The position numbers were made by a program, and so were the translations under genes. From assembly GCA_023231475.1 (NCBI GenBank), contig JALJEE010000580.1, positions 1 to 50,764 on the forward strand: a stretch of 50,764 nt of DNA, read 5' to 3'. The notes beneath the pieces are model-generated. The model had not been told where the DNA came from and did no database searches. It worked only from the letters and a program-made list of their open reading frames with translations. This DNA comes from Seison nebaliae. Its lineage: Eukaryota. Positions 301 through 46,119 of this stretch are shown piece after piece (positions within the stretch are counted from its first letter, which is position 1; each line of letters begins with the position of its first letter).

Positions 301-937
301 ATGAGAGCATTTGGATTGAATAATATTCTTCTTTCAAAAAATCTTTTCAAAACTTTAAGATCTGCACCTATTAGATCTTTAAAAGAAAGCTAGTGAAAAC
401 TTTTAGACATTTGGTAGAATATTTAAGTTCTGTTCAAACATTTTATTTTTCAGTTGTATATGAGAAAAATGAGGATGGAAAAGAAATAACGGTTAATATT
501 TCTAACATTATCTTTTCATTTGATAGAAACCATTAGATTCGAGGTAAGCAATATGATAAAACTGCAGAGAACGTCCTTAAAGATGAGAATGGGAAACTAC
601 TTTGTTTATGTCGCTTAGAAGATAAAGGAATCAGAATACATTATACTGTTACTTAATAAGTCAATTAACAAATTCATATCAATTTATATTTCCTAAGGAT
701 GTTCTTGTATTACGTCAATTTATCAATAGTGATGGTGATGTTTTGCCTCGTCATTTGACTGGAATATGTTACGAGAAATTTCAATTAATTCACCGTTTGG
801 TAGACAAAGCAAAGAGAGCTGGTTTCATTCCATTTCTTGTCTAATTAGAAATAACGTTTTGTTTAGGACTTCTGGCGAAAGAAGAGGTAGAAGACGTTGA
901 AGGATTTCAAAAAAGAAATACATTTTTTTATTATTAA
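301..937 (+). CDS. MRPS18A: Mitochondrial ribosomal protein mL66/S18A, 5 exons (301-388, 454-491, 537-647, 698-821, 867-937)
   Basis: Spliced translation gives a basic presequence, LKEIVYEKNEDGKEITIRG and HYTDVLVLRQFINSDGDVLPRHLTGICYEK...KAKRAGLL, matching the S18 family (DVLLLSQFI..G.MLPR.ITGLC...RAGLL). Absent from the ORF track because of its introns. Intron 1 must be GC-AG. Confidence 0.88.
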
Positions 938-1072
938 TTATTGTTATAAAAATTTTAATTTAAATTCTCATATATTTTTTTTGGTCGAAAAAAAAATTGG
1001 TTTAAGAACATGTATTTTCTAAATAAATCTGTTAAATATTTAAATTTTAGAGGAAATTTGAATTGTCATAAA

Positions 1073-1972
1073 TTAAGAAATAGGACATTGATTTTCCACT
1101 TGCATACAATTCTCAAAAAGTGATGATAGAGATGTAGAGGAACTATCTTTTGAATCGATCAGATTCTCCGTCAATTCTTTCGGTGGTGAACCATATTCTC
1201 TCATTTGTTGAATGAGTTCCAATATCGTCTCATAATTATCTGGATAAATTCAAATTTGAATTGGGAAAAAAAAAAAGAGAACAATTCGGTTTTTCATATT
1301 CCACAATAATCGTCCCCATCAATTCGTGTTGTTTTCGATAATTTCCCAATTGAGTTTGGGTCAATGTCATTTCATTATCTTTCAAATATTTTGGGAATTT
1401 CTCACTCGCATATTTGAGAGAAGGATATAGGACATCTTTGGAGAGCATAGTCGTTAAGAAATTCTTCATAAAAGGGAAACAATTGAACAATTCATTTGTA
1501 TTACTTAATCCGTCATCGTTCTCTGTATTATTCTTCATTAAATTATTTAACAGAACATTCTCCATGTCAGGCGGAAATTGGAAATTATCTTCTGAAAAAT
1601 TCTTTTCGGTCAACAAATCACCGAGAAGTTTTTGTGCTTCAAACGCTGGAGATTTTTCCTTTATCTCCTCTTTATCTACAGCAAAATTGCTTGATGATTT
1701 CTCTTCTTGATTCTCATGCGGTGGTTTATCAACTATGTTGTTCATATCCTTGAAACATGTTCTGAATTGTTCAAACAAATTCTTGTCATCGTACCCAGCA
1801 ACTTCGTTCTTGTTAATATTACTTTCGGAAGACGCATGTAATTTCGATGACTTCAAATTATTATATTCATCAAGTGCATCTTTTTTGAATCGAAATAATT
1901 TAATAAATGAATGGAAAAAAAACCGTCGAACATTGATTTCATGTTATCGTTGGTGGGTGGTAAATCTGACAT
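1073..1972 (-). CDS. PEX19: Peroxisomal biogenesis factor 19, 3 exons (introns 1880-1923, 1240-1282)
   Basis: N-terminal FDDALDEY motif forms across intron 1; MLSKDVLYPSLK; ILELIQQMREYGSPPKEL; C-terminal CaaX box CPIS*. Confidence 0.93.
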
Positions 1973-2178
1973 TTTCTCCAATAATTTTCACCAAATTCTT
2001 CCACTCATAATAATATTAAAATATTTTAAACTTATGCTTAAGTCTTCAATTTGTCAATTATTCAAACAATTTTCTTTCCTTATTAAAATTCTTCACTTTT
2101 TTTCAAAATATTTAAAAATTTTCAATTATCAAATTGACAGTTGGATAATTCTCTTATTATCTCTTGGAATAGAAGTAA

Positions 2179-2219
2179 AATAATGTGTATTATGATTATG
2201 TGAATAATGTGTATTATGA
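2179..2219. repeat. Short direct repeat AATAATGTGTATTATGA x2 in the PEX19/CCT4 divergent intergenic region
   Basis: Two identical 17-mers separated by a few bases, read directly. Confidence 0.7.
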
Positions 2220-2530
2220 ACAGAAGAATGACAGAAAAATCGTTTAGTTTTAGAATATTCTCATTCAATTAGTTAGAAATGTGTAAAGCTTAAGATTTTC
2301 AGTAACTATAGGAATAAATTGAAAGAAGTGATTGGATGAATCGATTAATTCAAATGTGGAATATTATCCAATTTGAATTTGAAAGGAAGAATTGTATTTA
2401 TCCTTTTTTTTAAAGAAACATGTGAGTATTGAGAAAGTTCCAGAAGATTCCAAAAAATGAATTAAATATTAATTAATCTTATCAATTTATTTTCCGTTAG
2501 AATATCATTTGAGATTTTACTTGAATCAAA

Positions 2531-4250
2531 ATGGCGAAAGTAGCTGCACCGACAACTGTCTCATCATCCACTCAGATGAATAAAGGAAACAAGAACGTCT
2601 TCAGTGACAAGAGCAAACCGGCTGCCGTTCGTTATAACAATATCATTGCAGCAAAAGCAGTTGCCGATGCGATTCGAACGAGTTTGGGGCCGAAAGGAAT
2701 GGACAAAATGATTCAAGACGCTAAGAGTAATGTCACAGTTACTAATGATGGAGCGACGATTCTCAAGCAGATGCAAGTGTTACATCCAACGGCGAAGATG
2801 TTGGTGGAATTGAGTCATGCTCAAGATATCGAAGCAGGAGATGGAACTACATCAGTTGTTGTTCTCGCCGGTTCATTATTAACGGCGTCGATGAAATTAT
2901 TGGAACAAGGAATTCATCCAACTGTCATATCGGAATCATTCCGATTAGCTGCAAATAAATGTTCGGAGATTCTTTATAAAATGTCAAGACAAATTAATTT
3001 GTCTGATATGGTGACATTGAGAGAGATCGCTCGAACTTCATTATCATCGAAGATCGTTTCACAAAATTTCTTATTGGCACCATTAGCTGTGAATGCGGTG
3101 ATGAATATCATTGATGTGAATAAGGATAAGAATGTCGATTTATCTCTAATTCGAATTCATAAAATTTTCGGTGGAACTGTTGATGATACTCAATTGATTA
3201 ATGGTATTCTCTTACCACAAAAAACTCCAGTATTTAATGGACCGAAATCGATCAAAGATGCAAAAATTGCTCTAATTCAATTCTGCATTTCTCCTCCTAA
3301 AACTGATATGGAGAATAATGTCATCATTAATGATTATGAGCAAATGGATCGAGTGTTAGAAGAAGAAAGAAATTATATTCTTAACATCATTCGACAAATT
3401 AAGAAGAGTGGATGTAATGTACTTTTGATACAGAAATCTATTCTACGTGATGCCACTAATGATCTCGCTTTACATTTCCTCGCCAAAATGAAAATTATGG
3501 TGGTGAAAGATATTGAACGAGATGAGATCGAAAACTTATCGAAAACTTTAGGATGTCGTCCAATAGCTAGTATCGATCATTTGAAAGTAGAAAATTTCGG
3601 TAAAGCTGAATTTGTTGAAGAGAAACGATATGGTCATAAGAAGATGGTGAAGATTGTGGGAGTCGAGAATCCACATGCTTCCATTTCTATTCTCATTCGA
3701 GGAAGTAATCGTTTAGTTTTAGAAGAAGCAGAACGATCATTACATGACGCTCTCTGTGTTATCAGATGTCTCGTCAAGAATAACGCCATCATTTCAGGAG
3801 GTGGAGCACCAGAAATCGAATTGGCAATTCGTCTAACGAAATGGGCGAATGAATTGGCAGATGCGAATGTTCATTGTGTACGTGCATTTGCAGAAGCATT
3901 GGAAATTATTCCTTATACATTAGCTGAAAATGCTGGAATGAATCCAATTCGAACAGTTACCGAATTGAGAAATCGTCATGCTCATGGTGATTTACATTCA
4001 GGAATTGACATCAACAAAGTTTCATCATTTAAATATAAAAATGAGTTTAATAAAATTTCTAGTGTTCCATCGGAGATATAAAGAACGTTATTCAACCATT
4101 ATTGGTAACATTATCCGCTGTGAAATTAGCGACGGAAACTGTGCGCTCAATTGTGAAAATTGATGATATTGTTATTTATTATTTTTTTAAATTTAATTTT
4201 AACCTCCTTAAAATTAATTCCATTTTCAGGTTATGGTTATGAGAAATTAG
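2531..4250 (+). CDS. CCT4: T-complex protein 1 subunit delta, 3 exons (introns 4019-4062, 4171-4229)
   Basis: [58 protein letters not shown]. Splicing restores VIQPLLV...[21 protein letters not shown]. Confidence 0.97.
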
Positions 4251-4576
4251 AAATAAGAAAAATTTATTTTCTATTTTTATTCGTTCGACGAAAATGTCGT
4301 GAGAGGAGGAACAATGAATAATTATTTTTAATAAAAAATCATTTCGCTTTTCTTTTAAATTTTGATAAAATTAAAATTTTTTATTTTCGAAATTACTTAT
4401 TCGATTAAAATGTAATTAGAGAAAGAAAATTTCCTCTTTTATTTTAATACTCTAATTTATTTGATATTTAACGGTATTTCTCTTCGGACAAATTTTTGCT
4501 ATTGAATGAATGAAATTTTGAAGATTTTGGAAGAGAAGTAAAATATTATTCAATCCACTTGATTAATTGTGAAAAA

Positions 4577-6889
4577 ATGTCGCAATCGAATCCCAATTCA
4601 ATGACGGTAGTCAATTCGTCTAATATGAATGGAGGTGCACGACAGAAAGTTATGATGCAATTACACAACACACTTAATATGGTGAATGACGTGATGAAGA
4701 ATGAACAATTCCGACAATATCGTCAGAAATTCCTCCAACAAATTCTTGTGACCGTCAGTCAAAATCGAGAATTGGTAACGATCATGTTGAGAATGTGCTC
4801 AGCAAATAAATCGAATTTATTAATAAATGTTATTCGAGATGCGGTGGATAATTATTCGTCTTTGGAATCATATAATTTGCAAACGTATATTCAGAAATAT
4901 AATGAATATCTCAAATTTTTCGAACAAGCTGATGATGCAGTTCGTCCTGAATTATCTCAAGTGTTATTCCCATTATTCGTTACAGTAATAATGCAATTGT
5001 TACAACAGAATCGTTATGAAGATGCGGCTGAATTTTATAAACAATTCTCCAAATGTATTCCAGTTTATTACGATGAATATTTACTTCAATTAAAGATGTT
5101 GAGAACGTTCCCACCATCACCCGATTCCTTCCCACTCCTCAATGCACATATGACACAACAGAAATATCATATCAGACAATCGATTTTAGGTGAACAATGT
5201 TTATCTCAATGGTTTTTAAAAAATCATTATTCAATTTTTCTCGAACGATTCAAATCTCAAATAGAATTCATTCGTTGTTATGAACAACCTCCCTCCGCTC
5301 AAATACTCTACAGTTTGAGCGGTGCATTTTTTGGAATTCCAGTTTATGCCGATAATAAAATTAAAGTTTTCAACAGTACGGTGAAAGAGCAAAATTTCAG
5401 AGCTAGAATAGATGGCGCTCCATCAACTGCCGTAAAAGAAGATCATGAAATGACTACGACAGCTAAAGCGAAAAAGAGATCTATCAATCGACCAACAAGT
5501 ACCGAAAATAAATCGGATAAAACGGAGACACAAGCAACAACAACAACAACCACAGTTTCGGGAACGAAGAAATCGAAAACAGAAAATATTCTTTCCGGTG
5601 ATCGTCGTTTACCGTTCCCACCGATAAGATCGGTTGATCAAATATTGAAAGCGAATGAAGGAAAAGAAGAGAAACATCTTCCGTCCGTCAAATTTTTTAC
5701 TCATTTCGAAAGTGATGATCGTATAACTTGTGCCGATTTCAGTTTGGAAGGAGGTGAAATTAAGAGGATTGTCATGTTGGGATTCAATTCCGCAATAATT
5801 CGTGTTATTGCATTGGAAGGCAAATTGACGACATTGAGCAATACGGATAAAAGTTTTCGTGATTTGAGTTCACTCTTCATTCCAAATGAACATGACAATA
5901 AAGATAAGAAGTCTCATTTATTAGTTGGTCATTCGGCAGCTGTGACTGGAGTTTCCATTTCGTCCGATCGTTTATACTCCGTCTCATCATCATTAGATTG
6001 TACTGTGAGATTGTGGTGTTTGACGACGATGGAGAATTTGGCCATATTCCGTGCACATTCTGCGCCCGTTCTCTGTGTAAAATTTTCACCTTTTAGTTTC
6101 TATTTTGCTTCGGGTGGTCAAGATCGTAGTTTGATGTTATGGGACATGACGAATCATTTACCCATTCGGATAATGAATGAACATTTATCTGATGTCGAAT
6201 GTTTGTCATGGCATCCAAATTCACATTATGTTGCTACTGGTTCATCAGATCGTATGGTTCGCGTCTTCGAAATAACAACAGCTCAAGTAGTTCGAATGTA
6301 TACGGGACACAAATCTCCCATAACATCTGTCCAATTCTCTCATAACGGCAAATTGATAGCGTCGGGTGGAGCGTTTCCATTGCCAGTTATTATTATTAAT
6401 AGCTTCAGTCTCGGTGTTCAATTAGTGGTGTATGGAATGCATCAGAATGATATTACTTCTCTAGATTTCTCTTTTGATTCACATTATTTGGTTTCCGGTT
6501 CTATTGACCAAACCATCAAAGTTTGGGATGTTACCGATTGGCTGAAAGCCGATAGTAATGATGACGTGGCACAAATTATTGCTGCGAATGAACAATCATC
6601 AAATGATCATTTATCCTCATCTGTTGTGCAATCATCATCATTAACCAATTTTTCACGCCAATATAAAAATGATCAATTTGGAGAAAGTTTCGATATTTCC
6701 ACTCTACATGATGTAACATCGAAATTAACGAAAGGGACAGTCTTTAACGAGAATGGTGAACCTCAACAATTGGAGGAAGCAGCAAATCTTATTATGACTC
6801 TATATACGAAGAATACAGACGTCATCAATGTAACTTGTTGTAGGAAACATTTGGTATTAGCTGTCGGTACATTCGATCGAACAGCATAA
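4577..6889 (+). CDS. TAF5: TFIID subunit 5 (NTD2 plus WD40 propeller), apparently intronless
   Basis: ELSQVLFPLFV NTD2 motif; WD40 repeats FSPFSFYFASGGQDR, HLSDVECLSWHPNSHYVATGSSDR and VRMYTGHK; C-terminal YTKNT...RKHLVLAVG fits TAF5 better than TAF5L. First ATG is at 4577. Confidence 0.9.
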   Translation: MSQSNPNSMTVVNSSNMNGGARQKVMMQLHNTLNMVNDVMKNEQFRQYRQKFLQQILVTVSQNRELVTIMLRMCSANKSNLLINVIRDAVDNYSSLESYNLQTYIQKYNEYLKFFEQADDAVRPELSQVLFPLFVTVIMQLLQQNRYEDAAEFYKQFSKCIPVYYDEYLLQLKMLRTFPPSPDSFPLLNAHMTQQKYHIRQSILGEQCLSQWFLKNHYSIFLERFKSQIEFIRCYEQPPSAQILYSLSGAFFGIPVYADNKIKVFNSTVKEQNFRARIDGAPSTAVKEDHEMTTTAKAKKRSINRPTSTENKSDKTETQATTTTTTVSGTKKSKTENILSGDRRLPFPPIRSVDQILKANEGKEEKHLPSVKFFTHFESDDRITCADFSLEGGEIKRIVMLGFNSAIIRVIALEGKLTTLSNTDKSFRDLSSLFIPNEHDNKDKKSHLLVGHSAAVTGVSISSDRLYSVSSSLDCTVRLWCLTTMENLAIFRAHSAPVLCVKFSPFSFYFASGGQDRSLMLWDMTNHLPIRIMNEHLSDVECLSWHPNSHYVATGSSDRMVRVFEITTAQVVRMYTGHKSPITSVQFSHNGKLIASGGAFPLPVIIINSFSLGVQLVVYGMHQNDITSLDFSFDSHYLVSGSIDQTIKVWDVTDWLKADSNDDVAQIIAANEQSSNDHLSSSVVQSSSLTNFSRQYKNDQFGESFDISTLHDVTSKLTKGTVFNENGEPQQLEEAANLIMTLYTKNTDVINVTCCRKHLVLAVGTFDRTA

Positions 6890-6970
6890 AATTAACATTG
6901 CTTTTTTTAAATTTTATTCATTTTTTTAATAAACTGAAAAGGAATTTATGGAATTTTTCGAATACCGTCA

Positions 6971-9715
6971 TTAGTCTTTCGATTTATCATGATATTGATC
7001 CATTAGCGATTGGAATGACATCGAATCTTCTTCATCACCATTAAGTCCATTGTCTTCGTCATAAATACTCATTTCATCACTCATCGCTGAAATTGCTCTC
7101 TGAGGATGAGATTGTTTCTTTTTCGGTTTTTTCAAATTTCGTTTCTCCGTCTCTCTGGACTTATCCAAAATCGGTGAATTGATTCTGGAATTTCTTAAGG
7201 AATTTGTAATTAGAAAATTTTTAGGTAAATCCATTGAATTCTTTGTAGGAGATTTAGTTCGAGTAGAATGCGCTGATTTTCTTGGGGAAGAAGAAATTAA
7301 TTTTCTTGTCTTCAAATTATCCCGATGGGAGAGTGGAAGAGATTTATTGGAAATTGCAGATAATTGATTTCTTTTGTTGAGATCTGCTGATCGAATTTTA
7401 TTTTTATGACGATGTGAACGTAACGACATTTGACGGACGGCACGAACAACATCGTCTAATTTTTCATCAGCGAACTCATATTCATCAGTTTCAGCGATTT
7501 GTTCGCTAATTTTCCGATTATATTTCTTTAATTTCAACAAATTCCGACTAGAACAAGTTATCGTATCCATTATCTGTTCATCGACTGGTTCTTTATCATT
7601 TAATTGTAAACTGTCTTGAATTATTCCAATTGACGATTTTCGCACTTCCAATAAACCATCTTCATTCAGATCGACAACTGAACAGGCACTACTCGTCAAT
7701 TCATTTTTGTCGTCATTCGGATTAGTTATCGTTCGATCTGAGAGTGAATCATATTCCATTATTTCTTCAGCTTCCTCATCACAAACTCCATATTTTTTAT
7801 TCATTGAATTATCTAAAATCGATTTTAATGGTGAATTCAATTCAGTTAATTCGTCAACAATCTTTGAAGGAGATATCAATGTCGTTTCAACGGATTTCTC
7901 AGGATGCCATGAAGATTGTTGTGTAATTTTTGTTCTTAATTTCGTCTCAGAATCTCTTCCCAATTTTACTATAAAGAAAATTGCATATTTTAAAAAAATA
8001 TTAAAGCGCACCTTCATCAATTATTTTTGTTGATGTCACCTGATGTTTCGGCTTTTTATCTTCCTCAATTTCATTAAGACGGAAAGTTTCGAAGGAAAGA
8101 TATTTCTCCAATATCGGTTCATCTAAAGTACATAACCGATTAGTAATCGACTGCAAATGGTCGTCATTCCTCGTTAAAATGAAAAGCAAAACAGAGAATA
8201 GAAATAATAGCAACTTCCTCCCCGATTTCACTGGTTTAGCAGAGACAGATCTCGCCGATTCAATTCTTGCAGTAGCAGGTCGACTTAAACGTCTATTTTA
8301 ATGAAATAAAAATGTATGAATGAAAAAGGTTTAAAATTAAACTCATCAATTTCATGTATCTTTGTAGCTGAACGGGCCGATTCTAATCTCTCGTTTTCAC
8401 ATTCAACTACCTGTTCCTTCAGTAACTTAATCTCTTCTAAATGTTGCTCTGATATATTCATTATAGTTTGAATTTCTTTTACTGCAGCCTCCTCTAACAG
8501 ATGTTGAACGGGTAATGCAGTCGAAACATTTCGCACAATTTTTCCATTTATGCTATTTTCCTTTTCTATTCGTGCTGATTCAGTTCTCAGTTTTGTTGCT
8601 TTCTTCAAAAATAGTTTCTCAGCATAACTCAACGTAGAAGTTGATGAGAATTTTATTTGTTTCTCAAACATCTTTTTTTGTTCAACCACATTTCTTTCGG
8701 TGGAAGTACTCATTTCTTTTTAATTCATTATAACATGAACAATAGTTGGACAAAGTGGAACCTTTCGTATCAAATGATGATTGTCTATAACTGTTAATAT
8801 CTCTATTCTCTTTATTATGTCTCCAATTATTCACTGCCAATTGAAATTGTTTACTACTTTCCTCTTCATCATAATTTCCTGTTCAATGAAATTGTTTAAA
8901 TTCTCCAATTATAATTTAACCATCTAATAAGTTTCCAAATGATGAAGTCACATCACAATTGATTGTATCCTGTTTACTCGTACTAACTTGTTTCTCATAT
9001 TTGCTGTTAGTATCGTTTATTGAATTTGTACGATTGTTCTCATTAATAAGTCTCTCAAAGTTATTTGTATTATACGTCGTGGGTATATGAGTTTTCATTG
9101 CACCTTTCTTGTGGAATGTCTTGAAACATCCCGTACAAAACTTTTCAGAACATTCTCGACAAATCTGAAAACATATCAACAGTTATTTCTTTTGAGTTAA
9201 ATTAAACCAATGACGCAATATTTCTTTCACACTGTCCACATTTATTTTTAATCGTATTTCGTTTTTCTATTAATTTAATTTAAAGAAAGGATATCTGAAT
9301 GAAAACTGAACTTCCTTTATCGCATTGGAGTAGAACGAGTTTTTGATCCTAAAAAATACTCACAATTAAAACTTATATATTTTAATAACTCGATAATTTG
9401 CTAAGTTGGCAGTTTTTTGTTTATGTCTTGCAGCACTGTTCCATATAGTGCCCCCTCTAATTCAGAACGGGAATTATATGAAAAGAATCTATAAAAATTT
9501 AATCATCAAACTCAGTCTCCTGCTGGAAATTTGCATGGAGAACATCGAGACGTTTCTGTATTTGTTCTCGTTCTTTCTGCAACTTTTCCGATTCCTTCTT
9601 ACTATTAAGAGAAGGATAAAGAATTAGAAGAACATTTATATATTATTGGATTTAAGTGTTGTTAATGAATTAAGATTTCCAACAAGGTTTTCGGATTCTT
9701 GTAATTATATGTCAT
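6971..9715 (-). CDS. ZBBX: Zinc finger B-box domain-containing ciliary protein, ~11 exons
   Basis: Spliced B-box CGQCERNIASL|ICRECSEKFCTGCFKTFHKKGAMKTH, plus LLDG|NYDEEESSKQFQLAVNNWR and LSYAEKLFLKK motifs shared with ZBBX. The start codon and low-complexity C-terminal exons are less certain. Confidence 0.8.
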
Positions 9716-10180
9716 TATATATCAGAACAACGATAACTTATTATCGAATATTAATTCGGAAATTAAAAGTAAGAAAAATCTAGTTGATATGGTAACGGAA
9801 CAAACTCCTTTAAATCAATCAAAAACGTTCATTTTCCGAATATTGATGAATTCTCATTTTATCTCATATCAAACTATAAGCATTCTATATTTTTTATTCA
9901 TTACATAATTCGAACTTTTTCTTTTTTTGGCACTTATATGACCTTTTTCCCATAAATTTCTAAAGATATGACACGCTTATTTAAAATTTATTCATTATAC
10001 ATGTATTTCGATAGGTTCTAAAGTTTTGAAACCCAGTATGTTATATAGTAGTATTAATAATTTAACAAACATTCAATAATTTATTTAACGAATTAACAAA
10101 AATAAGGAATTAAGTAAATTTGGAATTAATATTGGAATTAAGTCGAACGACATAATTGAAATTTGGAAAACTGGACAGTT

Positions 10181-11436
10181 TTACAAGTCGCTTTTAATCA
10201 AATCCGATGGTTGATTGAAAAACATTTTTGGTAATGTACTTCCAAAATAATATTTAGCATTCTTATGAACTGCTTCATATTCTTTTATTTTCAAATACTC
10301 TTCAGTTAATCGAACCTATACAATCAACAGATTTTTTAAAGAAAGAAAAAGAAAAATTTCTAACTTTATTTGCGGCCGCTTCTTTTTCACTTCTATAGAA
10401 TTCGGCGTCAGCGATCGACTTTTCTTTAGCTGTGTGCATCTCATATCCGATAATGGCAATCTTCTTCTCACTTTCTTTTTCGGAAATTTTTTGTCTGTAA
10501 TTTATTTCAGAAACCTGGGCAATTTTCTCAGCTTCGATGACTGCTTTCTTCCGTTCTGTCTCCGCTTCTTTTTCAATAACTCTTTGTTTCTGTTCTGCTA
10601 TCAATAACTTCGTCTTTTCATTTTCCCTTTAAAATGCTGAATGATAATTTTGTGAAGAAATGAAAGTAGAAACATAAGTTCATAATTCTTTCGAATTGTA
10701 TCCGGAATTCTCGGTTTAGTTACACGAACTGCCAAAACTTTCAATCCAGTTGCTCCGATATAATTCAAATCTTCTTGTAAAGCTGATTTCAGATTCTCAT
10801 CAATTTCAGCTGAATTGAAAGAATAAATAATAGATGAATAATAAGTAAAAGGGAAATAAACAGAATAAATCAATATACACTTCGTGCAGTGTATGAGAAG
10901 AACAGAATTGATTAATTTCATGATGGATCTTATTGAAAATTAAAGTTTTGTCATAATCAACCGTGTAATTCTTGACGATGTTATAAACTAAAATAATTAT
11001 CAATTTCTTATAAATAATCCAATTAAACCGTTTTCTGATTCTAATAAATTCACCACTTCAACTCGAGCGAAATAAAGAACAACTCCGCCACTCGTTCCGC
11101 ATGGAATATTATCCACTTCATCCGTTTGAACTGTGACCTGATGAGAAAAATGTTTTAGATGAAAATCTAAATAATATTTAAAAGAACTTGAATCGAATAA
11201 TGACTAGTGATAAACGGAATTTTCAAATGATATCCTGGTTTCGATGTGCTTTTCAGAAGAGCACCACCCTATTCAAATTTGAAGAAAAATTTTAAGGAAA
11301 CCATAATATTTATGAACTAAACTCGATAATAGACACCGACGTATCCTTCGTTGATATGATGTACGCCATAAGTCATGAAGCAAGTTAAAAGACCAAATAT
11401 GGCAAATGCTAACGTTGCGACGTTTTCTGGCGTCAT
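10181..11436 (-). CDS. ERLIN: Erlin (SPFH/band 7 ER protein), 7 exons (introns 11269-11322, 11138-11187, 10988-11028, 10810-10861, 10627-10673, 10316-10364)
   Basis: [86 protein letters not shown]. All six junctions are fixed by conservation. Confidence 0.96.
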
Positions 11437-12154
11437 TACTTAATAATTGTGTAATGAAAATTTATTTAAATCTAAACAAATTGATAGAAGGTAATATTCA
11501 ATAAAAATAATTATATTTATTAAATTTCCATTTTTGAATTGACAAAGAGCCTAAATTCATTCAATTGTTAGCTAAACTATTAAATTATTTTTCAATAAAT
11601 GATTTTGATTTATTTTATTTCTTGTCAATACTCGAGTGATGTTTAGTTCATAATTAAACTGTTTGATAATTTTTTGAAATCTGATGAAATCTGATATACT
11701 GATATCCGAAAAAGACAGAAATTTTTTGGGGAAATTAACGAAACTGAACATTAATTTAATATTATGGATATATGGTATTCCTCATCATTAGAAAGTTAAC
11801 CTTATTGTACATAATATACGTCAAATAGAAAAATATTCTGTTTTTTTTGCAAATTTAAAGATAAAGATAAATTACAAGTTAATACATTAAATTATGTAAT
11901 TTCCATGGAGATGAACTAGTATTTCAGTTACAGTTCTAACGAAAGTCAGTTATAAGAAATATATTTTTTAAAACTTTAATTTAGGAATTTAGAAATTAAA
12001 CATTCAACATATTTTCTATATAATTAAGTTTGTTGAAAAAAAACAGTTTATTATAAAGAAATTTCGGAAGTTGATCATAAAAGTTTTAATAGGGATAACA
12101 ATAAATTAAAATAATAGTGATTTAATTTTGTAAATCTCAATTCACATACAATTG

Positions 12155-13377
12155 TCAGTGAACGTAGAATCCACTTGATTGAACTAGATGCTTGCTTGGT
12201 AAGAGGATTTGAGAGCGATCAATGTAATTTGCAGTCAGCGATATATTCATCAATTTATCTTGCCCCTTCTCCTTAGGGAGATTTGGTGATTGGTTCTTAA
12301 CACGAGTCGCTATTTTATTGTTTCGAACCTTGCAACCATCTCTTGGAACTTTTGATAGGAAGGAGGATGTAATTGGATATTTCCGACTTAAATCTTTGAC
12401 ACTGTATCTTCCAACTCCAACGATAGCGTCATTCGCCCAATTATAATCTCTTTTAGCTGTGCTTTTAAACGGAGGTTTTTTCTTATTCTCCAATTTCTTT
12501 TCTTCGAAGTTTAAAGAATATGTTCCAACTGGTGGATGACCTTTTTGCCAATCGTAGAATAAACTCAAATGATCGATCTCTCTGGATGGACCAAATCTTC
12601 CGACTCTTCTTTTATCCAAATCTTGAGTAAACGTTTTGTAGTTATATTCACCGGGTCCCAAATCGATTGGTTGTTTCGCATAATGACCAGTATTTATCGG
12701 CTCTTGACGGTCAATCGTGAACACTTGATATGGACCTTTCGTTCCAGATCTTTTGTTTAACATTTTGTCAATTTCTGAAGGTATTTCGTAAGTTCCCGGA
12801 CCAACTGTATCACTCATTCTACCTAGACCTCGAATTGCTTCAACTGTTTCGAAATATGTCCGGTTTCCAGAACACTGAGATTTCGTTCTGTCATGTGGAT
12901 ATGTTCCTAATCAAATTAAAATAGAAAACATCTGATGTTTGTCATCTGAGTTTAACCTGGTCCTGGTACATCATTTAAATATTGATTTGGAAATCTAGGA
13001 GCTCGCATGTCCAACATTCCACGACGACTAACTGGTTTACCAAATTTACTCATATAGGAATCTCCAACTTCATATTTGCCTGGACCTAAACTGGTTTCTT
13101 TCGTTCTTGCAATTTCCTTTCTTAGTTTCATCATGACTGGCGGAATTTTTGCCATATGTTCCACATATAATTGTCTGCCCCAACCAGGAGCCGATTTCAC
13201 TTTATTTCTTTTCGATTCGCTAAATGGGCCACTATCATCGACATTGTAATAAGCTGGACCGGGATGACCCGACTTTTTACTGAAAGCCGTAAATGCATTA
13301 AGTCTTCGATATTGGGGATGTATTTCGAAGGCGTTAAATCGACCTGCTTTACGACCAAACCCAATGGAGTCTCCCAT
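12155..13377 (-). CDS. CIMAP2: PGP-repeat ciliary microtubule-associated protein 2 / LEXM-like, 2 exons (intron 12907-12956)
   Basis: Repeated GPG.Y motifs; VGPGTYEIPSEIDKMLNKRSGTKGPYQVFTIDRQEPINTGHY resembles LEXM/C1orf177. Splicing gives VPGPG|TY. Confidence 0.72.
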
Positions 13378-29103: not shown

Positions 29104-30412
29104 TTAAACTGATCTGCAATTTCGTACATAAAAATTTTTGGGTATAGTTTTGTAAACGTTGTCGAATAATTCTTCCACTGCCGGTTCTGATTCTTTTCGG
29201 ACGAATTGTTCTGCTTCCAACATCTCCTCCTTCACCTTCTTTTCTATTTGACGCAATTCATCACCAGTTGCTAATTCGTTTGAGAGAATCTTCTCTTTGA
29301 AAGATACGATTGGATCTCTTGTCCGTCGGACTTCTTGTACTTCCTCTCTCGTTCGATATGAGTTGCCTGGATCACTCATCGAATGTCCCATATATCGATA
29401 GGTAGACATTTCCATTATAATTGGTCCTCGGCCACTTAGACACCATTCTCTAGCAAATTTTGTTGCTGAGCGAACAGCCATCACATCCATTCCATCTACC
29501 AATATACCTGGAATATAATCTCCTCTCGTATAATAGTTAGTGGAAGCGGATGCTCGATCAACTGATGTTCCCATTCCATATCCATTATTCTCACAAATGA
29601 AAATCACAGGTAAATTCCACAATTTTGCCATATTAAACGTTTCAAACACTTGTCCCTGATTAGCAGCGCCATCACCATAAAGTGAGATGCAAACATTATC
29701 CTCATTTCGATATTTGTGAGCCAAGGCAATACCTGCACCTAATGGCACTTGAGCACCTACTATGCCATTTCCACCATAAAAATTCTTCGTATACATATGC
29801 ATAGAACCGCCTTTCCCTCCTGATATTCCACATTTCTTTCCCAGCAATTCACCTAACACTTGAACTGGAGTACCGCCCATCACATACGTCCAACCATGAC
29901 AACGATACGCTGTTACTACGGAATCGTTATTCAATGCCGATTTGATACCAACACATACTGCTTCCTTTAATTGATAATGATATTTGAATAAAATAAAATA
30001 TTAAAATGAACTTGTCCTGAATAGATGTGACAGAATCCACGGACTAATGCTTCTTTATATAATGAGATTGCTGTACTTTCTAATCGTCGCACCGTCACCA
30101 TATCTGTGTACCATTTGAGAGCATCATCTCTTGTACATGTACCTTCTACTTTGGGTCCTTCATCTTCAGATAATAAATGTTTTTTCACTGGCTAATCGAC
30201 CAACTTACACGAAAGAAACATAAAGAAAATGTCAACTTTAAATTCACATTTCATTTCCGTCATCAAATTCATCCGACTCCCATATTGCAAAGGAACAAAA
30301 CATTTTTTCTGTAAATTATTATTGATGAATATATATTCATTTTATAAATTACAGAATGAGAATAAATTCTAACTATCAATTGCTTATGAAAGGAACGTGT
30401 TATTGCCAACAT
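29104..30412 (-). CDS. PDHA1: Pyruvate dehydrogenase E1 alpha subunit, 4 exons
   Basis: [16 protein letters not shown] (intron 29965-30011), [29 protein letters not shown] motif, [12 protein letters not shown] phospho-loop. The intron 1 donor is ambiguous (GTT or GTA). Confidence 0.97.
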
Positions 30413-30686
30413 GTCTCACGGAGTGACTTACTCAAATGCAATCCTTATCTTCTGGATAAGAATTATATAAGAAATGAGTTAATTTCTCTTCGAATGAGAT
30501 ACCAAATTAAAAGAAATATTCCTGAAAAGTAATCTTAAAAAATTTTAATTTTTTAATTTTTCTTTGGTCGCCATCAAATATTTCGCTTTCATCGTATTAA
30601 TTTCCATATATATTTGTTCGGTTGACTGCAAATAAATTTTCAAAGTTTTTTCTAAAGAAGAAGACATAAATCAAGGACATCATTCA

Positions 30687-31600: not shown

Positions 31601-33046
31601 TTATCGGCTAATATTCCATTCTAAAGTCTTAAGAAATTCATCTTCGGTAAATTGAATAACTTTCGATGTTTCCAATAACATCTTGAAAAAGAGTTGAAAT
31701 AAAAATAGAGAGAAGAATTGGGGGAAATTATAACTTTTTGTCTATTCAAAATATCGATCAGTTTCTGTTGCTTTTTAAATATTTGAAGTAATTCATTCTT
31801 CTTATTTTCCAATTTGAGATTTTGCTGTTTTAGTTCACTAATTTGATTTCGATCTTCATTCATTGTATCATGTTTATCATTTGAATTCATCTTTATCCTT
31901 TCTTTACATCTGAAATCGATAAGTTATCGGGAAATATAATTATTCTTCTAAAAAATCTAATAACTTTGCAAGTTCCTCCAAAGTTCTCTTCAATCGAATC
32001 TCTGTTGATCCACTATCTTGTTCCTTCTTCCTTTGGTCTTTCTTCAAGTTTTCTAAATCCTTTAATTCAACCATATAGTTTAAATGAAAAAAAAATTTCT
32101 GTTAACCTTTTTCAAAATATTAAATTTGATTTCTAATTCTTTCTCAGAATTTTGATAATTTTGGTTAATTTTAGTTAGTCGCTCTATTTCAATCGTTTTT
32201 ACTTTCAATTTCTGCTCAAATTTATCTTTATCCGATTTCAATTCTTTTATGATGGCTGCACTTTTCGCAGTGTTCTCATGAGTTTGAAGTGAAGTTGAAC
32301 GAATCTTATTGAGTTCATTGCGTAGAACTAGAATTTTCGCTTTCAGAAATCTTATTTGACTTTCTAAAGATTTTGAAGAATAGAATGTGAAAAAGTATTT
32401 GTAGATCAAACCAGTTCCCATATTCGTGGCAGTTGGAGGAAGAATATCTTCATCAAAAATATCATTGTCGTTAATTGATTGAGATCTGTTATTTTTGATT
32501 CGATTGGATGATGTTGGTGGGTGGCCATTCCTCAAGGAATTAGGTCTTGATGATTTACTTTTCGATACTGCAGGTTTCTCCATCGTCCCAGTATCTAATG
32601 ATAATAAGTCCATCATTTTAGTTGTATATGAATTATCATAATTTATTTCACTATTCCTTCAAAAATTTTCATATTTAATTCAGTTAAGTAATAGAAGAAC
32701 TTTCCGACAGATTCTTTTAAGAAACTATAAAATAATTTATATAATATAACAAAATAATAAAACATCTAACTGTTCATCAAACAATTTATTATCCACCAAT
32801 AGCGCCTCTTGTTTTTTCTAAAATTAATTTTTTCAAATAAAATATCAAAAATTTGGAAATAATTTTTCTAACTAGCATATCATCCGTTTCCTGGATAATA
32901 TTCGCCGTCTTTTTTTCAAGATCGTCATTTAGTTTCCTTTAATTTAATTCCAATTTTACGTTAATTAAAACTTAAATTTAATTTCAAAACCGATATGCTT
33001 CCTCGCGCTCTTCTAACGTCATCTCATCACTGCCCATTTTCGACAT
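31601..33046 (-). CDS. TEX9: Testis-expressed protein 9 (ciliary coiled-coil), 9 exons including a 24-nt exon at 32701-32724
   Basis: EREEAYR|KLNDDLEKKT, MGT|ESQIRFLKAK, EIRLKRTLEE, FKKQQKLIDILNRQK|MLLETSKVIQFTEDEFLKTLEW. Confidence 0.9.
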
Positions 33047-34685: not shown

Positions 34686-34923
34686 TTTTAATATTTAAAC
34701 ATTATACGTATATATATAATCATAAAATTTATCGGTTGTCGTTTCATTTTAACTTCAATCCTAAAATTACTCAAATCATTCTAAAATGCCCGTTTCCAAA
34801 AACAAATAAAAATTATTGAAATCTTTATTTTTTATAATTTCAATATTGTTAGATAAACTGTTGATTAGAATGAGAAAGCATTAGAAAATTTAATATGAAT
34901 TTATTCGTGTGAATGTCATAGTG

Positions 34924-35856
34924 TTATGTGTTGTTATAACCTCTCAACATCTCAATGACCATCCATCTCATAAATCGCATCATAACAATTTCGTACTCTT
35001 TCTTATAAAGAGTTTTTGGCAAGTTGTTGTATAAGGAGTAGAAGAATGCATCGATCATAGGAGGGAAGTATTCAATTCGGAGAGCGTATGCTCGATGTGC
35101 TTTACCCAAATTAAAAAGAATTTTTACTGCCAATCGTTCATCATCGAAATTTTTTACAACGCTTGAAATTAATCGAAATATTCGTCGTCCATGAGTTTTG
35201 AGTTGGGCGAAGTTCTCGATTTTCGACTTATTCTTTCCATCATTCATCGTATGAAATCTCCATATATGTCTCAGATTAGGATAACGCTCGAAAACCCTGA
35301 AATTTAAAAATTTAATAAAAATTTAATATTTCCTCTAAACGACGAACCTCAACATCATATCTAAGCCGTACACTCCCAAATCTCCTGTTTGTACTTCCTC
35401 CCACACTTTGGTGACTACCGCTTTCTCATAATTATTCATGGGACATCGATCCGAATAGTTCAAATGAAATTGTTTAGTTATCATATCAACCGATTTGGGA
35501 CAGTCGATTGGATAGACCAAATACAATTTCGACTTTCTACATGGAATACGATAGTGTTTAATGTTCGGCCGATAAATTTTCTCATTCGGATCTAAATTAG
35601 TCATTTCACTTTGAAAAGAATTTTTAGTTGAGATTGACAGATATTTTATTCGAACTAACCGTTCGGTTTCATAGGAATGGGCGAATTCTTGGAGAATCTG
35701 AGCCGAATCATGTCGAATCTTGATGAGATTTTGTTTTGAACTCGCACTGCTTATCGAGTACTTTTGAGAATGAAGACAACAGTTCATATAAGAAGAATTT
35801 TCCGGGTGAGTTGCTGTTTCATCAATGAACATTGGTGAAACGAGCGCACAACCCAT
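34924..35856 (-). CDS. Globin with long N-terminal extension (globin X/neuroglobin-like), 2 exons (intron 35297-35347)
   Basis: VTKVWEEV (A helix), GLDMMLR|VFERYP (B/C), LKTHGRRIF (distal His E7), LGKAHRAY (proximal His F8), EYFPPM (G helix). Starts MGC. Confidence 0.85.
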
Positions 35857-38171
35857 AATTTATATAGAAATCTATGATTTGAGAAATGAGAAAATGATAA
35901 ATGTCAAATGGAACGACATTAGGTGGCAACATTAGTAATATGTGGGTTGGCAGAAGGAGAATAATATCATACATCCGAAATATAATTAATGAATTGTTAT
36001 GTCTTGTTAGGAAGCATGGATGTACTTCAATGGGAAATGATTGATCGAGTGTAAAATAGTAGTGGAATGTTGGACGGAAAGAATTAAAAGAAATCAATTA
36101 ATTTATTTAATACTAATGATATAGATAAGTAATGAATAGGACGATATCATATTGGCAAATTTGATATCATTCAGGTTATTCGTACGATTATCAAGACTAT
36201 AAAATCAAATAATGAAAGAATTGTTATGGCATCGATGAGATTGAAGAAAAACGAATGAATCGATTGAACATGAGAAAGATATGAAGAATGGAAAATATTT
36301 CATTCCTTATGGCAGTTTATTTTATGAGAATAATGATATTATTACATCAGATTAAAAGAATTGATAAATGTAATGTTCTAATATAATGTTTCATTTCCCT
36401 CATGAATGATTACGGTTGATGATTTAGATTAAGCACTACGACATTCTCCTGCTTTCTAAATATTATACTAAATTTACTTTTTCCTCTAATTCTTCTCAAT
36501 TACCAATTATTTTTGTAAGTTCATCTTACTACTTGTGAGATAATAGGAGGAATTAATGGATACTTGTAGTAAGGAAAAAAATTTAATTTTCGATTAATTC
36601 TTTAAAATGTTATGATGAGGCTTCTTAGAAAAATGGATGTTTCCCATCCTCGGAAAGAACTCATATTCATCTCGTTACATGGAAAAGTATGCGCTGGATA
36701 CATATTAATAATTTTCATTTCAAATGAGATAAGAATTATTAATAATAGACAAGACATAAATAGATATGCAGTACATGGATCAACAAGACGACAGGTAATT
36801 GAATGGTTACTTTCTTCAAATATCACTGAAATCACTAAGGTATGTCAGAGTTTGACTATAAATGACTTCATATTTCTTTCGGTCGGATGGATCTCTATAC
36901 AAAAGATCACTAGCACGAAAAGAAATATGTTGAGGGGAAGAAGTAATGAATGATCGTAGGACGAAACCATTTTCTAGAAAGATTATGACATTTTAAAATG
37001 GCTCTTGAGAAATTGCAGGTATAGGCGAAAACTAATCAGAATCCATCATTGTTCTAACTACCAGAAAGCCATATCTCCATCATTCGCTCCATTACTCATC
37101 TCATTTATCTCATTAAAATTTTTTATCCATCTTACTCGAAATTCATTGAAATTAGAAATGACAATTAAAAAGAATTTTCATAAAGTGAAATGGAAAGAGG
37201 AGGGAGACTTGTTGATAAAACATCCGTTCTATATGAATATTTGATGATCTATTAAGTTCTTCATATTTCTCTTAATTATACGTTCGTACAAACGAGATGG
37301 AATGATAGTCGGTGGAGAAAGAAAGTCTGAAATTAGAATATTTATTAGTTCGAAAACTACAACTTAACTGGATGGTGAATAATGTTCATGAATTGAGACA
37401 TGTCGGACAATAAGATTTATCTTTGAAATATATATTATCATAATGTTAGAGAAAACGAAAATTATTCATTTTAAAAGAATGCCTCATTTTTGTCAGCTTA
37501 TTTCTAATATAAGTTCGAAAAGTAGATCGATATGTATCATAAATGTCTAATAAGTAATGGACGATAACTAAAAAACATATTAAAAGTTTGATAGACAATC
37601 GCGAGAGTAGATCGGAAGAATGATTAAGAATATTGAAAAATCAGTTAGAAATTCTCAGAAATATAGAGGACATTAATTCTTTTTTGATAATATCTCCTCA
37701 GAGCTCTCCTACCTCCTATAAAAGAGTGATGGCTGATATGATTGAGAGACGTGGAACTTCTTGGAAATGAGTGCATTCCTTCCTATCTTATGCATTGAGA
37801 ATGAAAGATTGAATCCAATTCTATTCACTTCTTCTTTTGTTAATGAAAGAAAGGAAGAAATTGTTCGCTATTCCAAAACATCATGCCACAACATAATCGT
37901 ATAAAGAAGATGTTGAGAGATATCAATATGTTTTGATTTCTCCTTAGTCGACGCATATGTCTAGAGATTGTATACGTAATGATGTTCTTCGTCTATTGGA
38001 CGAAAAAGGAGGAGGAGGAGGAGTAAGAGAAGGAGGGAAATGTGAATGAAAGAAAGAATGGATGAGCGACAGAGATGCACTTATTTCTTTTTCTTTTCGA
38101 ATGAATAATATTTGGAATCGAATAAATCTGATTTGAATGAAATAATGAATAAAATTGGAAATGAAATAAGT

Positions 38172-42306: not shown

Positions 42307-43220
42307 ATGTTCTTAAATGTTAGTTTTCTCGTTTCATACTCGAACAACTTTTATGATTGTTCCATTGACATCGACAGGCACCTAATTGTTCTCGTGAATT
42401 ACTTTGTCTTCAAAAAGAATTGAAGAGATTGCAGAAACAACAAGATGAGGCATGTTCATCGCTTAATTACTTGTTAACTGAACGAGCGAAAGCATTGAAA
42501 GTTAAATTTTTTTCTTCTGTCAATTTAATTCTTCTTCTAATTTTCCAGGATCCTGCACTCTTCATGAAGAAGTTGAAAGAGAAGTTGGAAAATTGTTTAT
42601 TAAACTATTTGATAATTGAATGACATTTCATTATGTTTTATAGTGATGAAGATTGTTTTAAAATGCCAGAACCACTTCAATTGCAATTCGATCTGGTTTT
42701 GGGAGGTGACAAAACTACTTCTCTTCCGGAGGTGGCGCTTGGTTTTGTGATGAATGTTGAAGAGTCGTTGAACGAAGATGAGGGAAAGACGGTTGATGTA
42801 GAAATGATAAATGGAATTGAAGAAACGACCGAGATGAATGAGAAGGATGTTGTTAAAGTTGAATCTACAAATACAAAAGGAACTCGAATTCGAGATGACA
42901 AGGGTTCGAGTTCCTCAGAAACAAATGGAAAAAACGGAAGGACATCAACTAAAATTAGAAAAAAAGTTAGACCGCAAGGTAAAAAAAACCAACCGAAAAG
43001 ACCGAGTGCTGGATGTAGTAGATGGACAACAGAGGAACATGACCGTTTATGTGCATTAATGAGGAAATATCCACCGGAAGAAGTTCAAGCTAAACGTTGG
43101 AGGAAAATCGCCGAAGAACTTCATTCGAGAACTCCCCTACAAATTCAATCTCATGTTCAGAAAATGGCCAAAAGACTTCCTGATTGGGAAGAAAATAATA
43201 CTAATAATTGTAGTTCTTGA
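42307..43220 (+). CDS. ZZZ3: ZZZ3-like SANT/Myb protein, 4 exons (introns 42319-42377, 42501-42548, 42584-42643)
   Basis: RAKALK|DPALFMKKL coil motif and SANT WTTEEHDRLCALMRKYPPEEVQAKRWRKIAEELHSRTPLQIQSHVQK, both characteristic of ZZZ3/ATAC1. No ZZ finger found. Confidence 0.72.
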
Positions 43221-43440
43221 AATAGTTATTGTCAATCAAAAAACTTGTTGTTATTTCCTTCGTTATTTCACTCGCCTTCAGTTTCACATACTCTTCTCGT
43301 TGTAAAGAAAATCTCTAATTTTTTTTAATCTTTCCCAAAACCGGTTATACGGAAGATATATTTTTCTTGTTAATTCATTTTTTTGTTATAATAATAAAGT
43401 TATTTTAATTTAAAGGATAATTTATTTAACAATATTATCA

Positions 43441-46119
43441 TCATTTCGATAATTCAATATGTAAATCTTCCAATTTCTCGTCAATTCGCCGAAGCTTCCG
43501 CTGGATTTCGATGAGAGCCATATCTTTTGATGACATTCGATTCTTCTTACTTTTCTTTTCTTTCTTTTTACCTTTCTTCAATTTCGTTCTATCGAAATAT
43601 GAAGTGATGTAAGCACGAGACACATTCCGAACATGATTGTCGATACCATAAGCATTAACGTAAATATAACGATGGAATTGAAGACGAGCAAATTGGAATG
43701 CCAATTGAATTCGTCTTTCTTCATTCTTTTCCTTTTCTAATTTCTCTTCGTCGAGCGTTTTATCTGGTAATTCGACTTTTTTATCTTCCTCTTTTAGATC
43801 ATCGGGTATTGGTTGAATTTGTTTCTTTTTTCGTTTCTCTTTTAATTCATTCTTCATCTGAAGCATCAATCGTTTCTTTTGTTCTTTCTCATGTTGTAGT
43901 GCGATTGTGTTATCGGAGAATTGTATATGCTTCTCATTCTTCACTTCCAAATCTAAATCTTTCGATTTAATTTCGGATTCTTTTGAAGGTTTTCTGAAAG
44001 AACTTTTACAGATTTCTTTAATATCGATATTAGACAAATCCTTATTATTCTGTAATTCTGTGACGGTTTGGTTTTCACTCGTTATTGTTGTTATACTATC
44101 CTCAATGAGAGGATGACTGTCTAGAATTGTCAAGTCATCATTATGTTCTTCCGATATTATTTGCTCTAACATATTTTCTCTAATTTTATCTTGTGAATTT
44201 TTCTTTAGTTTCTTTGTTCTTTTGATATATTCAGGCTTAATTGCATCAACTTTGTAATCATGAGTTTCATCTTTTTCATCTTTATCAAAAACTTTTATTT
44301 GGACTTGAAACTAAATTCAATACAATTCAACTAAAATTACAAAGTTAGGAAAAGGTAACTATACCAGAATCAGTCGATTCCAAATCAAATGATTTTATTT
44401 CAATTGGAGGTAACTCTTCATGTGTCCGATCGATTCTAATCGTCGTTTCACCCACTAGTGGAATATCATCCATATCCACTTTCACAATTGTACATTCTTC
44501 CTCGTTTAACTTCAATTGGAGATCGATATTTTCTTTCGAAAGATCTTCGTTGATCAATTCATCGATAACATCATCAGAAATATGTAAAGTGAAATTTGTT
44601 CGATCAGTTTTTCGACTATCGTTCTTACTGCCTGATAATGCACTTTCTAATAATTTACGATATTCAATTCGTCGATTTTCAACATTATTTTCTTCGTTCT
44701 CTTTTAGATTTACTATACTTTTCTCTATCAAACTTGAAGTGAATGAACAGCGAGAAGAAATGTTCCTCGACGTTTCTTTAACAATTTCAATTATTCTTCT
44801 TTCTTCTTGTAATCGTTGAGTGTTGAGATAATTATTCTTATTATCATTTGTTGATGCCAAAGCAAAATTCTGCACATTAATCAATTGATTGTCTATCGAC
44901 GAATTGTTAGTTCTGACGGATTTCCTCGACAATTTAATTCGTTTCATTTCATCCGATTGTCGAAAGAAAGCTTTGTTGGGTAAAGTTGTATTTTGTTTTA
45001 GTTTTGGAAGATGAATTTTCTCAACCGAAGAATCAATCACTTTATCTATCGATATTGGTCTTTTTGATAAATTTCCCAATTTCTTTTCATTTCTCGTTTT
45101 CTTCGAATAATTTTCTTGCATTGTCACTTCAATTTCTTTTTCTAGTTTGCGACGTTCTTGTTCTTGTTCAAACGACGGTTGAAATAGTTTCGTGTTTATC
45201 GATTTAGTCAAAGCAGCTCGTTCATATGACCATCCCACATTCGATTTATTTGTTGACTTATCTTCATTAAAATAATTCATTGAACTACTTAACGAAATGT
45301 TTCGATGATGTTGTATATTAGAAAAATCGAAATTCTTATAATTTATGTTAGAATTGATTGTTAAATTGGACTTTGCAATAAACTTATCAGCGACTGTGGA
45401 AGATATAATCGATTTGGGTAAATAATCATCCCTTCCACCTGGTCGAAATGGGATCGTTTCCTACAAATTATGTTCTTACTATGCAAAGTCAATATTAGTT
45501 GTATGTAAACTTTATTATTAAGAAATTCTTTCAGATATCCTTCAACAACTATTTGCTGTTGTTTCTTTTTTGAATATAATTCCATTTCTTCTTCTGTTCT
45601 CGTCTTCTTTAATTTCTCTAATTTTTTTGTCCTTTCCACTTCCACCAATTCATTTGGTGACGTTTTAACTTTCGTTGTTGCTAAATGGAATTCATTTATT
45701 TCCATAATACGATATGAGAAGATAACGTTTATTTAGAATGACTGGAAGTTTCATGTTCTCTGATATTCGTACCAGTTTCGAAGACGGATAAATTTCGCTC
45801 AAATTCCGTTTAGTCATTATCGACGTACGATCTTCTTCGATTGAAGTGAGGAAAGGCAATGATGGAAATGAATTTAATGAATTTGTGGAAACATTGATTT
45901 GTTTGTTTTTTTCATTCTCACCTTCTCGATGAATCAATACCGTTTCCGGTATTAATTCAATGGAAGGGATCTGCTGATATGACAAAATGGTTCGGCATAA
46001 ATTACCTTCACTTTTTATATGATTCTCACTTCAAATAACAACGAACAATGGACTTCATTCATGCTGATAATTTGAGAAAAATTTAACTTGTAAGACATAC
46101 CATATTTGGTTCGGTCCAT
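43441..46119 (-). CDS. Uncharacterised charged, low-complexity protein, ~5 exons
   Basis: Four consecutive minus-strand ORFs can be joined in frame by GTT-AG introns. The only conserved-looking block is YGIDNHVRNVSRAYITSYF near the C-terminus. Start position is tentative. Confidence 0.6.

Follow-up and report, generated by a model that had tools for sequence, protein, structure and literature searches.

Altered donor codes have been described in protists and yeasts with few introns, in which only a small number of sites had to follow the change. In animals, the purine at the third intron position (+3) of the donor, or 5' splice site, and the arm of the U1 small nuclear RNA (snRNA) that reads it are treated as fixed: the U1 base opposite +3 is a U, which pairs with A and wobbles with G, hence the purine. 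Here we analyze the introns of one contig of Seison nebaliae, a tiny seisonid rotifer living on crustaceans; this stretch (JALJEE010000580.1, 50,764 nucleotides (nt), hereafter the window, to which all positions refer) carries donors that begin almost uniformly with GTT. The closest described counterpart is Entamoeba, in which, according to Roy and Bowser (bioRxiv 10.1101/2022.06.08.495308), GUUUGU(U) donors have co-evolved with a U1 arm ACAAAC, the U6 ACAGA being unchanged; the ordinary arm, ACUUAC, pairs with GUAAGU. The same preprint describes a single U1 change in the relatively intron-rich Mastigamoeba balamuthi, where the arm ACGUAC matches GUGCGC donors. In Saccharomycotina, switches from +4A to +4U are linked to the loss of METTL16 and SNRNP27K (PMC11732430).

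Our curated set comprises 48 introns in 12 genes on both strands of the window, each junction leaving an open frame; genes at 16,000-28,600 and 36,000-37,900 and a G-protein-coupled receptor (GPCR) gene were left out. Forty-six of the donors read GTT, one GCT (389) and one GTG (8011), and none GTA, a tally already made in a first-pass annotation of the window and reproduced here by our own whole-gene models. At +3, T is found in 47/48 introns and G in 1/48; A is found in 0/48 although it makes up 33% of intron interiors, and the 47 T residues compare with a T content of 47% in those interiors (p 1e-14). The information at +3 amounts to 1.85 bits, equal to that at +2, with 0.22, 0.06 and 0.29 bits at +4, +5 and +6. 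GTT donors are far beyond chance in the window, and we are practically certain that the +3T shift is real there. Judged by their sequence, the introns appear to work like U2-type GT-AG introns but to break the animal +3 purine rule, since they have the GT-AG or GC-AG ends of the U2 type and do not follow the animal donor consensus with its purine at +3 (GURAG). The U12 type, whose donor motif is RTATCC, was rejected, this motif being absent and all 48 donors being GTT, GCT or GTG.

The set is partly hand-chosen, and the weight rests on two tests that are independent of donor choice, one by homology and one by a donor-blind gene parse. For the former, hidden Markov models (HMMs) were made from non-Seison homologues of CCT4 (114 sequences), ERLIN (89), EHD (55) and PDHA1 (17), and at each of 15 introns the junctions that preserve the frame were scored up to 45 bases away. 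The HMMs resolved 12/15 introns (CCT4 2/2, ERLIN 6/6, EHD 3/4, PDHA1 1/3), with donors at 4019 and 4171 in CCT4, at 11322, 11187, 11028, 10861, 10673 and 10364 in ERLIN, at 39993, 39766 and 38541 in EHD and at 30011 in PDHA1. All 12 are GTT, an outcome with a probability of 1e-5 at 0.388 per site. At each of these introns, either there was no GTA or GTG alternative in frame or the best one trailed by 15-45 bits. When noncanonical junctions were allowed as well, a GT-AG junction still ranked first or came within ~2 bits of the best frame-keeping one. The donors that the first-pass annotation had held to be pinned by conservation in these genes (the six of ERLIN, the two of CCT4, EHD 39993 and PDHA1 30011) were thus all resolved as GTT. 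The same eight GTT donors also reproduce the NCBI models of CCT4 and ERLIN.

The second test is a dynamic-programming parse. It combines an acceptor profile, a length term and a codon model trained on long open frames, takes any GT or GC as a donor and ignores +3; the acceptor profile was drawn from 11 of the resolved introns, so at the 3' end the recovery of those introns depends in part on the profile. Over 13 gene spans, the parse called 39 introns, namely 34 GTT, 2 GTG, 1 GTC, 2 GC and 0 GTA, so that GTT stands at 34/37 called GT donors versus 38.8% of the 750 unused sense-strand GTs of the same spans (p 2e-11). Over six penalty settings applied to 12 genes, the GTT calls were 27/32, 33/38, 43/49, 46/52, 44/54 and 46/60, false calls included. 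Indeed, the parse makes such calls, merging small exons at high penalty and cutting coding sequence at low penalty, and the stop supplied to it for a coiled-coil gene (31682..32990), which we take to be TEX9-like, was in the wrong frame; all calls of this kind are kept in the parse tallies and are absent only from the curated 48. When +3 was set to A in silico, the same donors were called, all of them at five settings and 42/44 at the sixth; the parse therefore does not lean on a T at +3. For PEX19 and the globin gene, the parse is the sole source of the donors, with margins of 13.5 and 11.9 in the former and 0.8 at globin 35347.

An artefact, in which T-rich DNA and biased donor choice or a local oddity of the contig would have produced the shift, could draw on the 47% of T in intron interiors, on the partly hand-picked set and on the use of one window and of DNA only. 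It is extremely unlikely in view of the homology and blind-parse tests, of the 47/48 donors set against that 47% (p 1e-14) and of the occurrence of the shift in 12 unrelated genes on both strands. Furthermore, contigs of three DNA runs cover window positions 1-20000 evenly and nearly identically, and this cover is flat across introns, with no spliced joints. A protist contaminant was also rejected: in a quick tree of 38 sequences, the CCT4 of Seison falls among bilaterians (Shimodaira-Hasegawa-like approximate likelihood ratio test (SH-aLRT) support of 93) on a long Seison-only branch, its sister not being resolved, and the window encodes a secretin-family GPCR with a hormone-receptor domain.

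The introns of the curated set are as follows, a slash marking the exon-intron boundary.

389..453, plus strand: MRPS18A intron 1 (gene identified by matches to Pfam PF01084 and the PDB), the only GC donor, AAA/GCTAGT, found by the donor-blind parse.
492-536, 648-697 and 822-866, plus strand: MRPS18A introns 2-4, all GTT; the PDB alignment fits the intron-4 junction.
1923-1880 and 1282-1240, minus strand: two PEX19 introns (Pfam PF04614), GTT, parse margins 13.5 and 11.9.
4019..4062, plus strand: CCT4 intron 1, AAA/GTTTCA, homology-resolved, in NCBI model P0001.
4171..4229, plus strand: CCT4 intron 2, ATT/GTTATT, homology-resolved, in NCBI model P0001.
7969..9683, minus strand: ten introns of a B-box gene (Pfam B-box), nine GTT and the GTG at 8011 (AAG/GTGCGC), from a curated open frame.
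10316..11322, minus strand: six ERLIN introns with donors at 11322, 11187, 11028, 10861, 10673 and 10364, all GTT, homology-resolved, in NCBI model P0121.
12907..12956, minus strand: intron of a SHIPPO-repeat gene (weak match to Pfam PF07004), CAG/GTTAAA, parse margin 11.1.
29965..30011, minus strand: PDHA1 intron 3, CAA/GTTCAT, homology-resolved at 45 bits above the best GTG; the PDB match stops at the junction.
30373-30309 and 30236-30192, minus strand: PDHA1 introns 1 and 2, modelled as GTT, with rivals GTA 30352 and GTG 30247.
31682..32990, minus strand: eight introns of the coiled-coil gene, all GTT, from the parse and a curated frame.
35297..35347, minus strand: globin intron (Pfam PF00042), GAG/GTTCGT, from the parse only, margin 0.8.
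39993-39950, 39766-39398 (369 nt), 39255-38656 (600 nt) and 38541-38480, minus strand: four EHD introns, all but that at 39255 homology-resolved.
42319..42643, plus strand: three introns of a Myb-domain gene (Pfam PF00249), all GTT, from the parse.
44311..46087, minus strand: four introns of a gene without a Pfam match, with donors at 46087, 45726, 45510 and 44359, all GTT, from the parse and a curated frame.

In the B-box gene, presumably ZBBX-like, four donors and one acceptor were chosen by hand. Exon 3 of MRPS18A contains an unused GAG/GTAAGC at 544. In CCT4 and EHD the first exon is very long and introns are confined to the 3' part, and three genes are single open frames, encoding a TAF5-like WD40 protein (4577-6886), a GDSL-hydrolase (30666-31394) and DDRGK (33876-34682), which suggests intron loss alongside retention. 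The globin gene (34927-35856, minus strand) encodes an N-terminal extension of ~140 residues that begins MGC, which we assume to be a possible acylation signal, and the parse calls in it an optional in-frame GTT intron of 51 nt (35659-35609).

Most introns are short, 44/48 being 41-65 nt long, and the signal downstream of +3 is weak. Position +4 is A in 22, T in 13, C in 9 and G in 4 of the 48 introns, a marginal excess of A (p 0.05); +5 is G in 15/48 versus 6.5% G in intron interiors (p 2e-7); +6 has no preference for T (T 17/48, A 21/48); and +7 and +8 are T-rich but near the intron background (Kullback-Leibler (KL) divergence of 0.04 and 0.12 bits). Upstream, the exon end is A-rich, with A at -3 in 27/48, at -2 in 26/48 and at -1 in 23/48; G stands at -1 in 15/48, which bears out the earlier remark that this base is often not G, and a trade-off between -1G and +5G was not detectable in this small sample of 48 introns (p 0.75). 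GTTAG, the commonest donor 5-mer (8/48), is found in 5/10 introns of at least 58 nt versus 3/38 shorter ones (p 0.006, with a cut-off picked after inspection). The two longest introns, of 600 and 369 nt and both in EHD, begin GTTAGT, and the sole GC donor has GCTAGT. Donors with GC usually match the optimum at their other positions, and the sole GTG donor (8011) is preceded by AG and has G at +5, as expected if the weak spots of these two donors were made up elsewhere in the site. None of the 10 GTAAG or GTGAG sites in these genes is used, compared with 8/17 GTTAG sites (p 0.012, position ignored). The acceptors have T in 24, C in 13, A in 10 and G in 1 of 48 cases at -3; such a share of AAG (10/48) and GAG (1/48) is higher than usual in animals, and the 3' signal may be relaxed too. 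Branch-point motifs of the forms CTRAY and YTRAY occur in 6/48 and 24/48 introns, respectively, counts that have no chance control.

Based on these donors, we lean slightly toward the proposal that the U1 arm of Seison has changed by one base, from ACUUAC to ACUAAC. An A opposite +3 would pair only with U, making T strict and excluding A, and with the remaining arm unchanged the best donor would be GTTAGT, the usual GTAAGT with +3 A replaced by T. GTTAGT is the likely optimum because the two longest introns start with it and because the GC donor reads GCTAGT. A U1 arm of this kind would account together for the strict T, for the lack of A at +3 although the genome is AT-rich, and for the surviving GTTAGT optimum. 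That this optimum survives, if weakly, goes unmentioned in the first-pass annotation and suggests a change at a single U1 position rather than an entirely new code. Under this proposal, long or GC-starting introns would need GTTAGT, and short introns would manage with GTT, A-rich exon ends and their short length. The mean number of Watson-Crick pairs at +1 to +6 is 3.10 for ACUUAC, 4.08 for ACUAAC and 3.90 for ACAAAC, values that follow from the tally and are not independent of it. An Rfam search of the window yielded no snRNA (no U1, U5 or U6) and one chance match, and of four matches to U1-like 8-mers in the window none lies inside any Rfam U1 match.

Seison resembles Entamoeba in that almost every GT-AG intron has U at +3 (47/48 of the curated donors), and a compensating U1 change is proposed for both. 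Entamoeba is intron-poor and has a strong consensus of six to seven bases with U at +4, whereas Seison has 48 introns in 12 genes, a weak +4A, +5G in 15/48 and no preference at +6; neither a prevailing +4U, nor a near-invariant GUUUGU, nor a low intron density is found in the window. The predicted Seison arm, ACUAAC, would be one change away from the standard, compared with two for the ACAAAC of Entamoeba. Mastigamoeba balamuthi, as described in bioRxiv 10.1101/2022.06.08.495308, is like the proposed Seison case in its single U1 change, in the match between arm and donors and in its relative richness in introns, but its change is at +4 and its +3 stays a purine. The Saccharomycotina switch is likewise a lineage-wide shift in donor preference and differs in its position (+4), in its U6-side cause, in its unchanged U1 and in having taken place in intron-poor yeasts.

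Alternatively, +3U could be general in Seison with U1 still ACUUAC, the U being selected by another reader. Candidates are U6 with a changed base or PRP8 with a changed pocket, acting during catalysis, U1C or LUC7 in diverged form, and a protein of the TIA-1/NAM8 type on the U-rich intron start. Several lineages have switched donors without a U1 change (bioRxiv 10.1101/2022.06.08.495308), and U5, U6, METTL16, SNRNP27K and LUC7 shape donor preference (PMC11732430); the A-rich exon ends (-3 A 27/48, -2 A 26/48) would suit pairing with the U5 loop, and +7 and +8 are T-rich. With a standard U1, +3A would remain the best partner, but GTA is used in 0/48 introns and GTAAG/GTGAG at 0/10 sites; moreover, the factor losses documented in PMC11732430 shift +4, not +3, and T at +7 and +8 is near the intron background, as noted above (0.04 and 0.12 bits). 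We consider another reader possible but unlikely. The low information past +3 (0.06-0.5 bits per position) and the 41-65 nt of 44/48 introns would also fit a loss or vestigial state of U1 pairing, as in Cyanidioschyzon merolae (precedent in PMC11732430 and bioRxiv 10.1101/2022.06.08.495308), in which U5/U6 and PRP8 would directly read a minimal GUU and short introns would otherwise be defined by the 3' AG and their length; the marked gene loss in Seison nebaliae, with 36.5% of BUSCO Metazoa missing (PMC8351084), points in the same direction. However, the complete GTTAGT of the 369- and 600-nt introns and the GCTAGT of the GC donor look as though something pairs with them, G is enriched at +5, and the reported U1 loss is in an intron-poor alga whereas 48 introns are present in these 12 genes, all of which makes a loss of U1 pairing quite improbable.

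Beyond the window, four DNA runs searched at 80% likeness contain a second ERLIN copy (depth 3.7-4.3, ~85% identity), in which 28/32 listed exon changes fall at third codon positions. From its sequence, this copy is likely an orthologue from a diverged lineage, and two lineages of Seison nebaliae have been described (PMC8351084). Its intron 4 (10861) keeps GTT with +4 changed and with about one-third of intron positions differing; at intron 6 (10364) the alignment spans GTTA and breaks at +5. The program GMAP writes gaps of intron length in transcript-to-genome alignments as introns only if both ends score at least 0.8 under a human-type model. In the published Seison mapping (PMC8351084 supplement 2, sampled in its parts 1, 200 and 400 of 400), we counted 115 distinct gaps of 40-99 nt, with a median of 50 and hence as long as the introns of the window, of which 102 are written as deletions and 13 as introns. 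If the GMAP rule holds, this would mean that most Seison introns fail a human-type splice model genome-wide, a figure that has no control species and to which acceptors may contribute. Among the 19,906 rows of that supplement listed, none matched the exon or intron lengths of CCT4, ERLIN or EHD, while a control was found; other rows may hold them. The first-pass annotation had claimed a genome-wide change in donor recognition. Its core stands, in that the shift in the window is far beyond chance and a changed donor recognition is its simplest cause; the extension to the genome we infer from 12 genes, two donors of the second ERLIN copy and the mapping-gap statistic, and we think it very probable that GTT donors hold genome-wide in Seison.

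The history of the shift can be approached through EHD. Of 115 EHD homologues, 52 part from the family sequence directly behind the K-V at which Seison has intron 1 and end within 54 residues, which an intron at this site would predict; 52 and a further nine continue as full-length proteins, and two are ambiguous. These sequences point to an intron-1 position that is old and shared with other genomes. Because this position is shared with many other genomes, ancestral introns were likely rewritten; the idea that a wholesale intron gain alone accounts for the shift was rejected on the same ground. The U1 change would have been followed by rewriting of ancestral introns and not by their replacement. 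We see an even chance that Seison represents the first U1/donor recoding in Metazoa, with an A opposite +3 in its U1, the ancestral introns of an intron-rich genome rewritten almost wholesale from GTA or GTG to GTT, and a signal of little over three letters.

The +3U could be older than Seison and common to other rotifers or acanthocephalans, which would be compatible with any of the mechanisms above. Against this, intron surveys across eukaryotes have covered bdelloid and Brachionus genomes (PMC10639083 and PMC11347168), our literature search found no such donors reported, and CCT4 lies on a long Seison-only branch; we regard a trait of the wider clade as improbable. A metagenome scan for rotifer genomic CCT4 gave 80 loci with at most 71% identity to a bdelloid query, and six that group with Brachionus are short, unbroken, transcript-like contigs. 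For donors, the available text of a bdelloid tubulin paper gives only G/GT (PMC3464624). Animal donors with +3U were not encountered in the literature search, whose coverage did not extend to subscription journals, bioRxiv supplements or the rest of PMC8351084 supplement 2. In its accessible portions, the Seison genome paper mentions introns only as to gene compactness (PMC8351084); its supplement 1 makes no mention of introns, splicing, snRNA or exons, nor does the available text of a 2025 paper on the group mention splicing, introns or snRNA (PMC12256650).

Several points weigh against a genome-wide GTT code read by a changed U1 arm. The HMMs left three introns undecided, namely EHD intron 3, which falls in a linker of variable sequence, and introns 1 and 2 of PDHA1, in an unconserved N-terminus; the GTA alternative for PDHA1 intron 1 that had been pointed out earlier is confirmed at 30352 and, like a GTG alternative for intron 2 at 30247, equals the modelled donor in HMM score. 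With no T preference at +6 and a weak +4A, U1 pairing past +3 may matter little. In bioRxiv 10.1101/2022.06.08.495308, a standard U1 is retained by most of the lineages whose donors deviate (69 Saccharomycotina yeasts, Giardia, Micromonas and Thecamonas), although their deviations are mostly at +4. Finally, the second ERLIN copy has GTT at 2/2 visible donors, but at a depth below 5 and with about one-third of its intron-4 positions different, so that both could well have been kept by chance.

In the window, the intron-bearing genes of Seison, an animal, average about four introns, and at least one intron position is ancient. A recoding in such a genome makes it testable how a core RNA-RNA recognition code is switched while its substrates, by our estimate many thousands, follow, and which parts of the spliceosome set the +3 rule. 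It is also a warning that alignment and gene-finding programs built on human-type splice models misread the Seison genome, as in the 13/115 sampled short gaps that were written as introns.

The window contains other elements besides these genes. The GPCR gene (14088-15440, minus strand), of the secretin family and with a hormone-receptor domain, is mostly one open frame. Between ERLIN and the B-box gene, at 9944-10037, some 70-90 AT-rich bases reach a summed contig depth of ~78x the single-copy level; this stretch, which has no second copy in the window and no Rfam match, is a small dispersed repeat. A Mutator-like element occupies 21194-23801, its terminal inverted arms of 120 nt, 80% complementary, flanking broken FLYWCH and MULE transposase frames, and non-long-terminal-repeat retroelement remnants occupy 47000-50764, including a reverse transcriptase fragment at 48170-48736 (PF00078).

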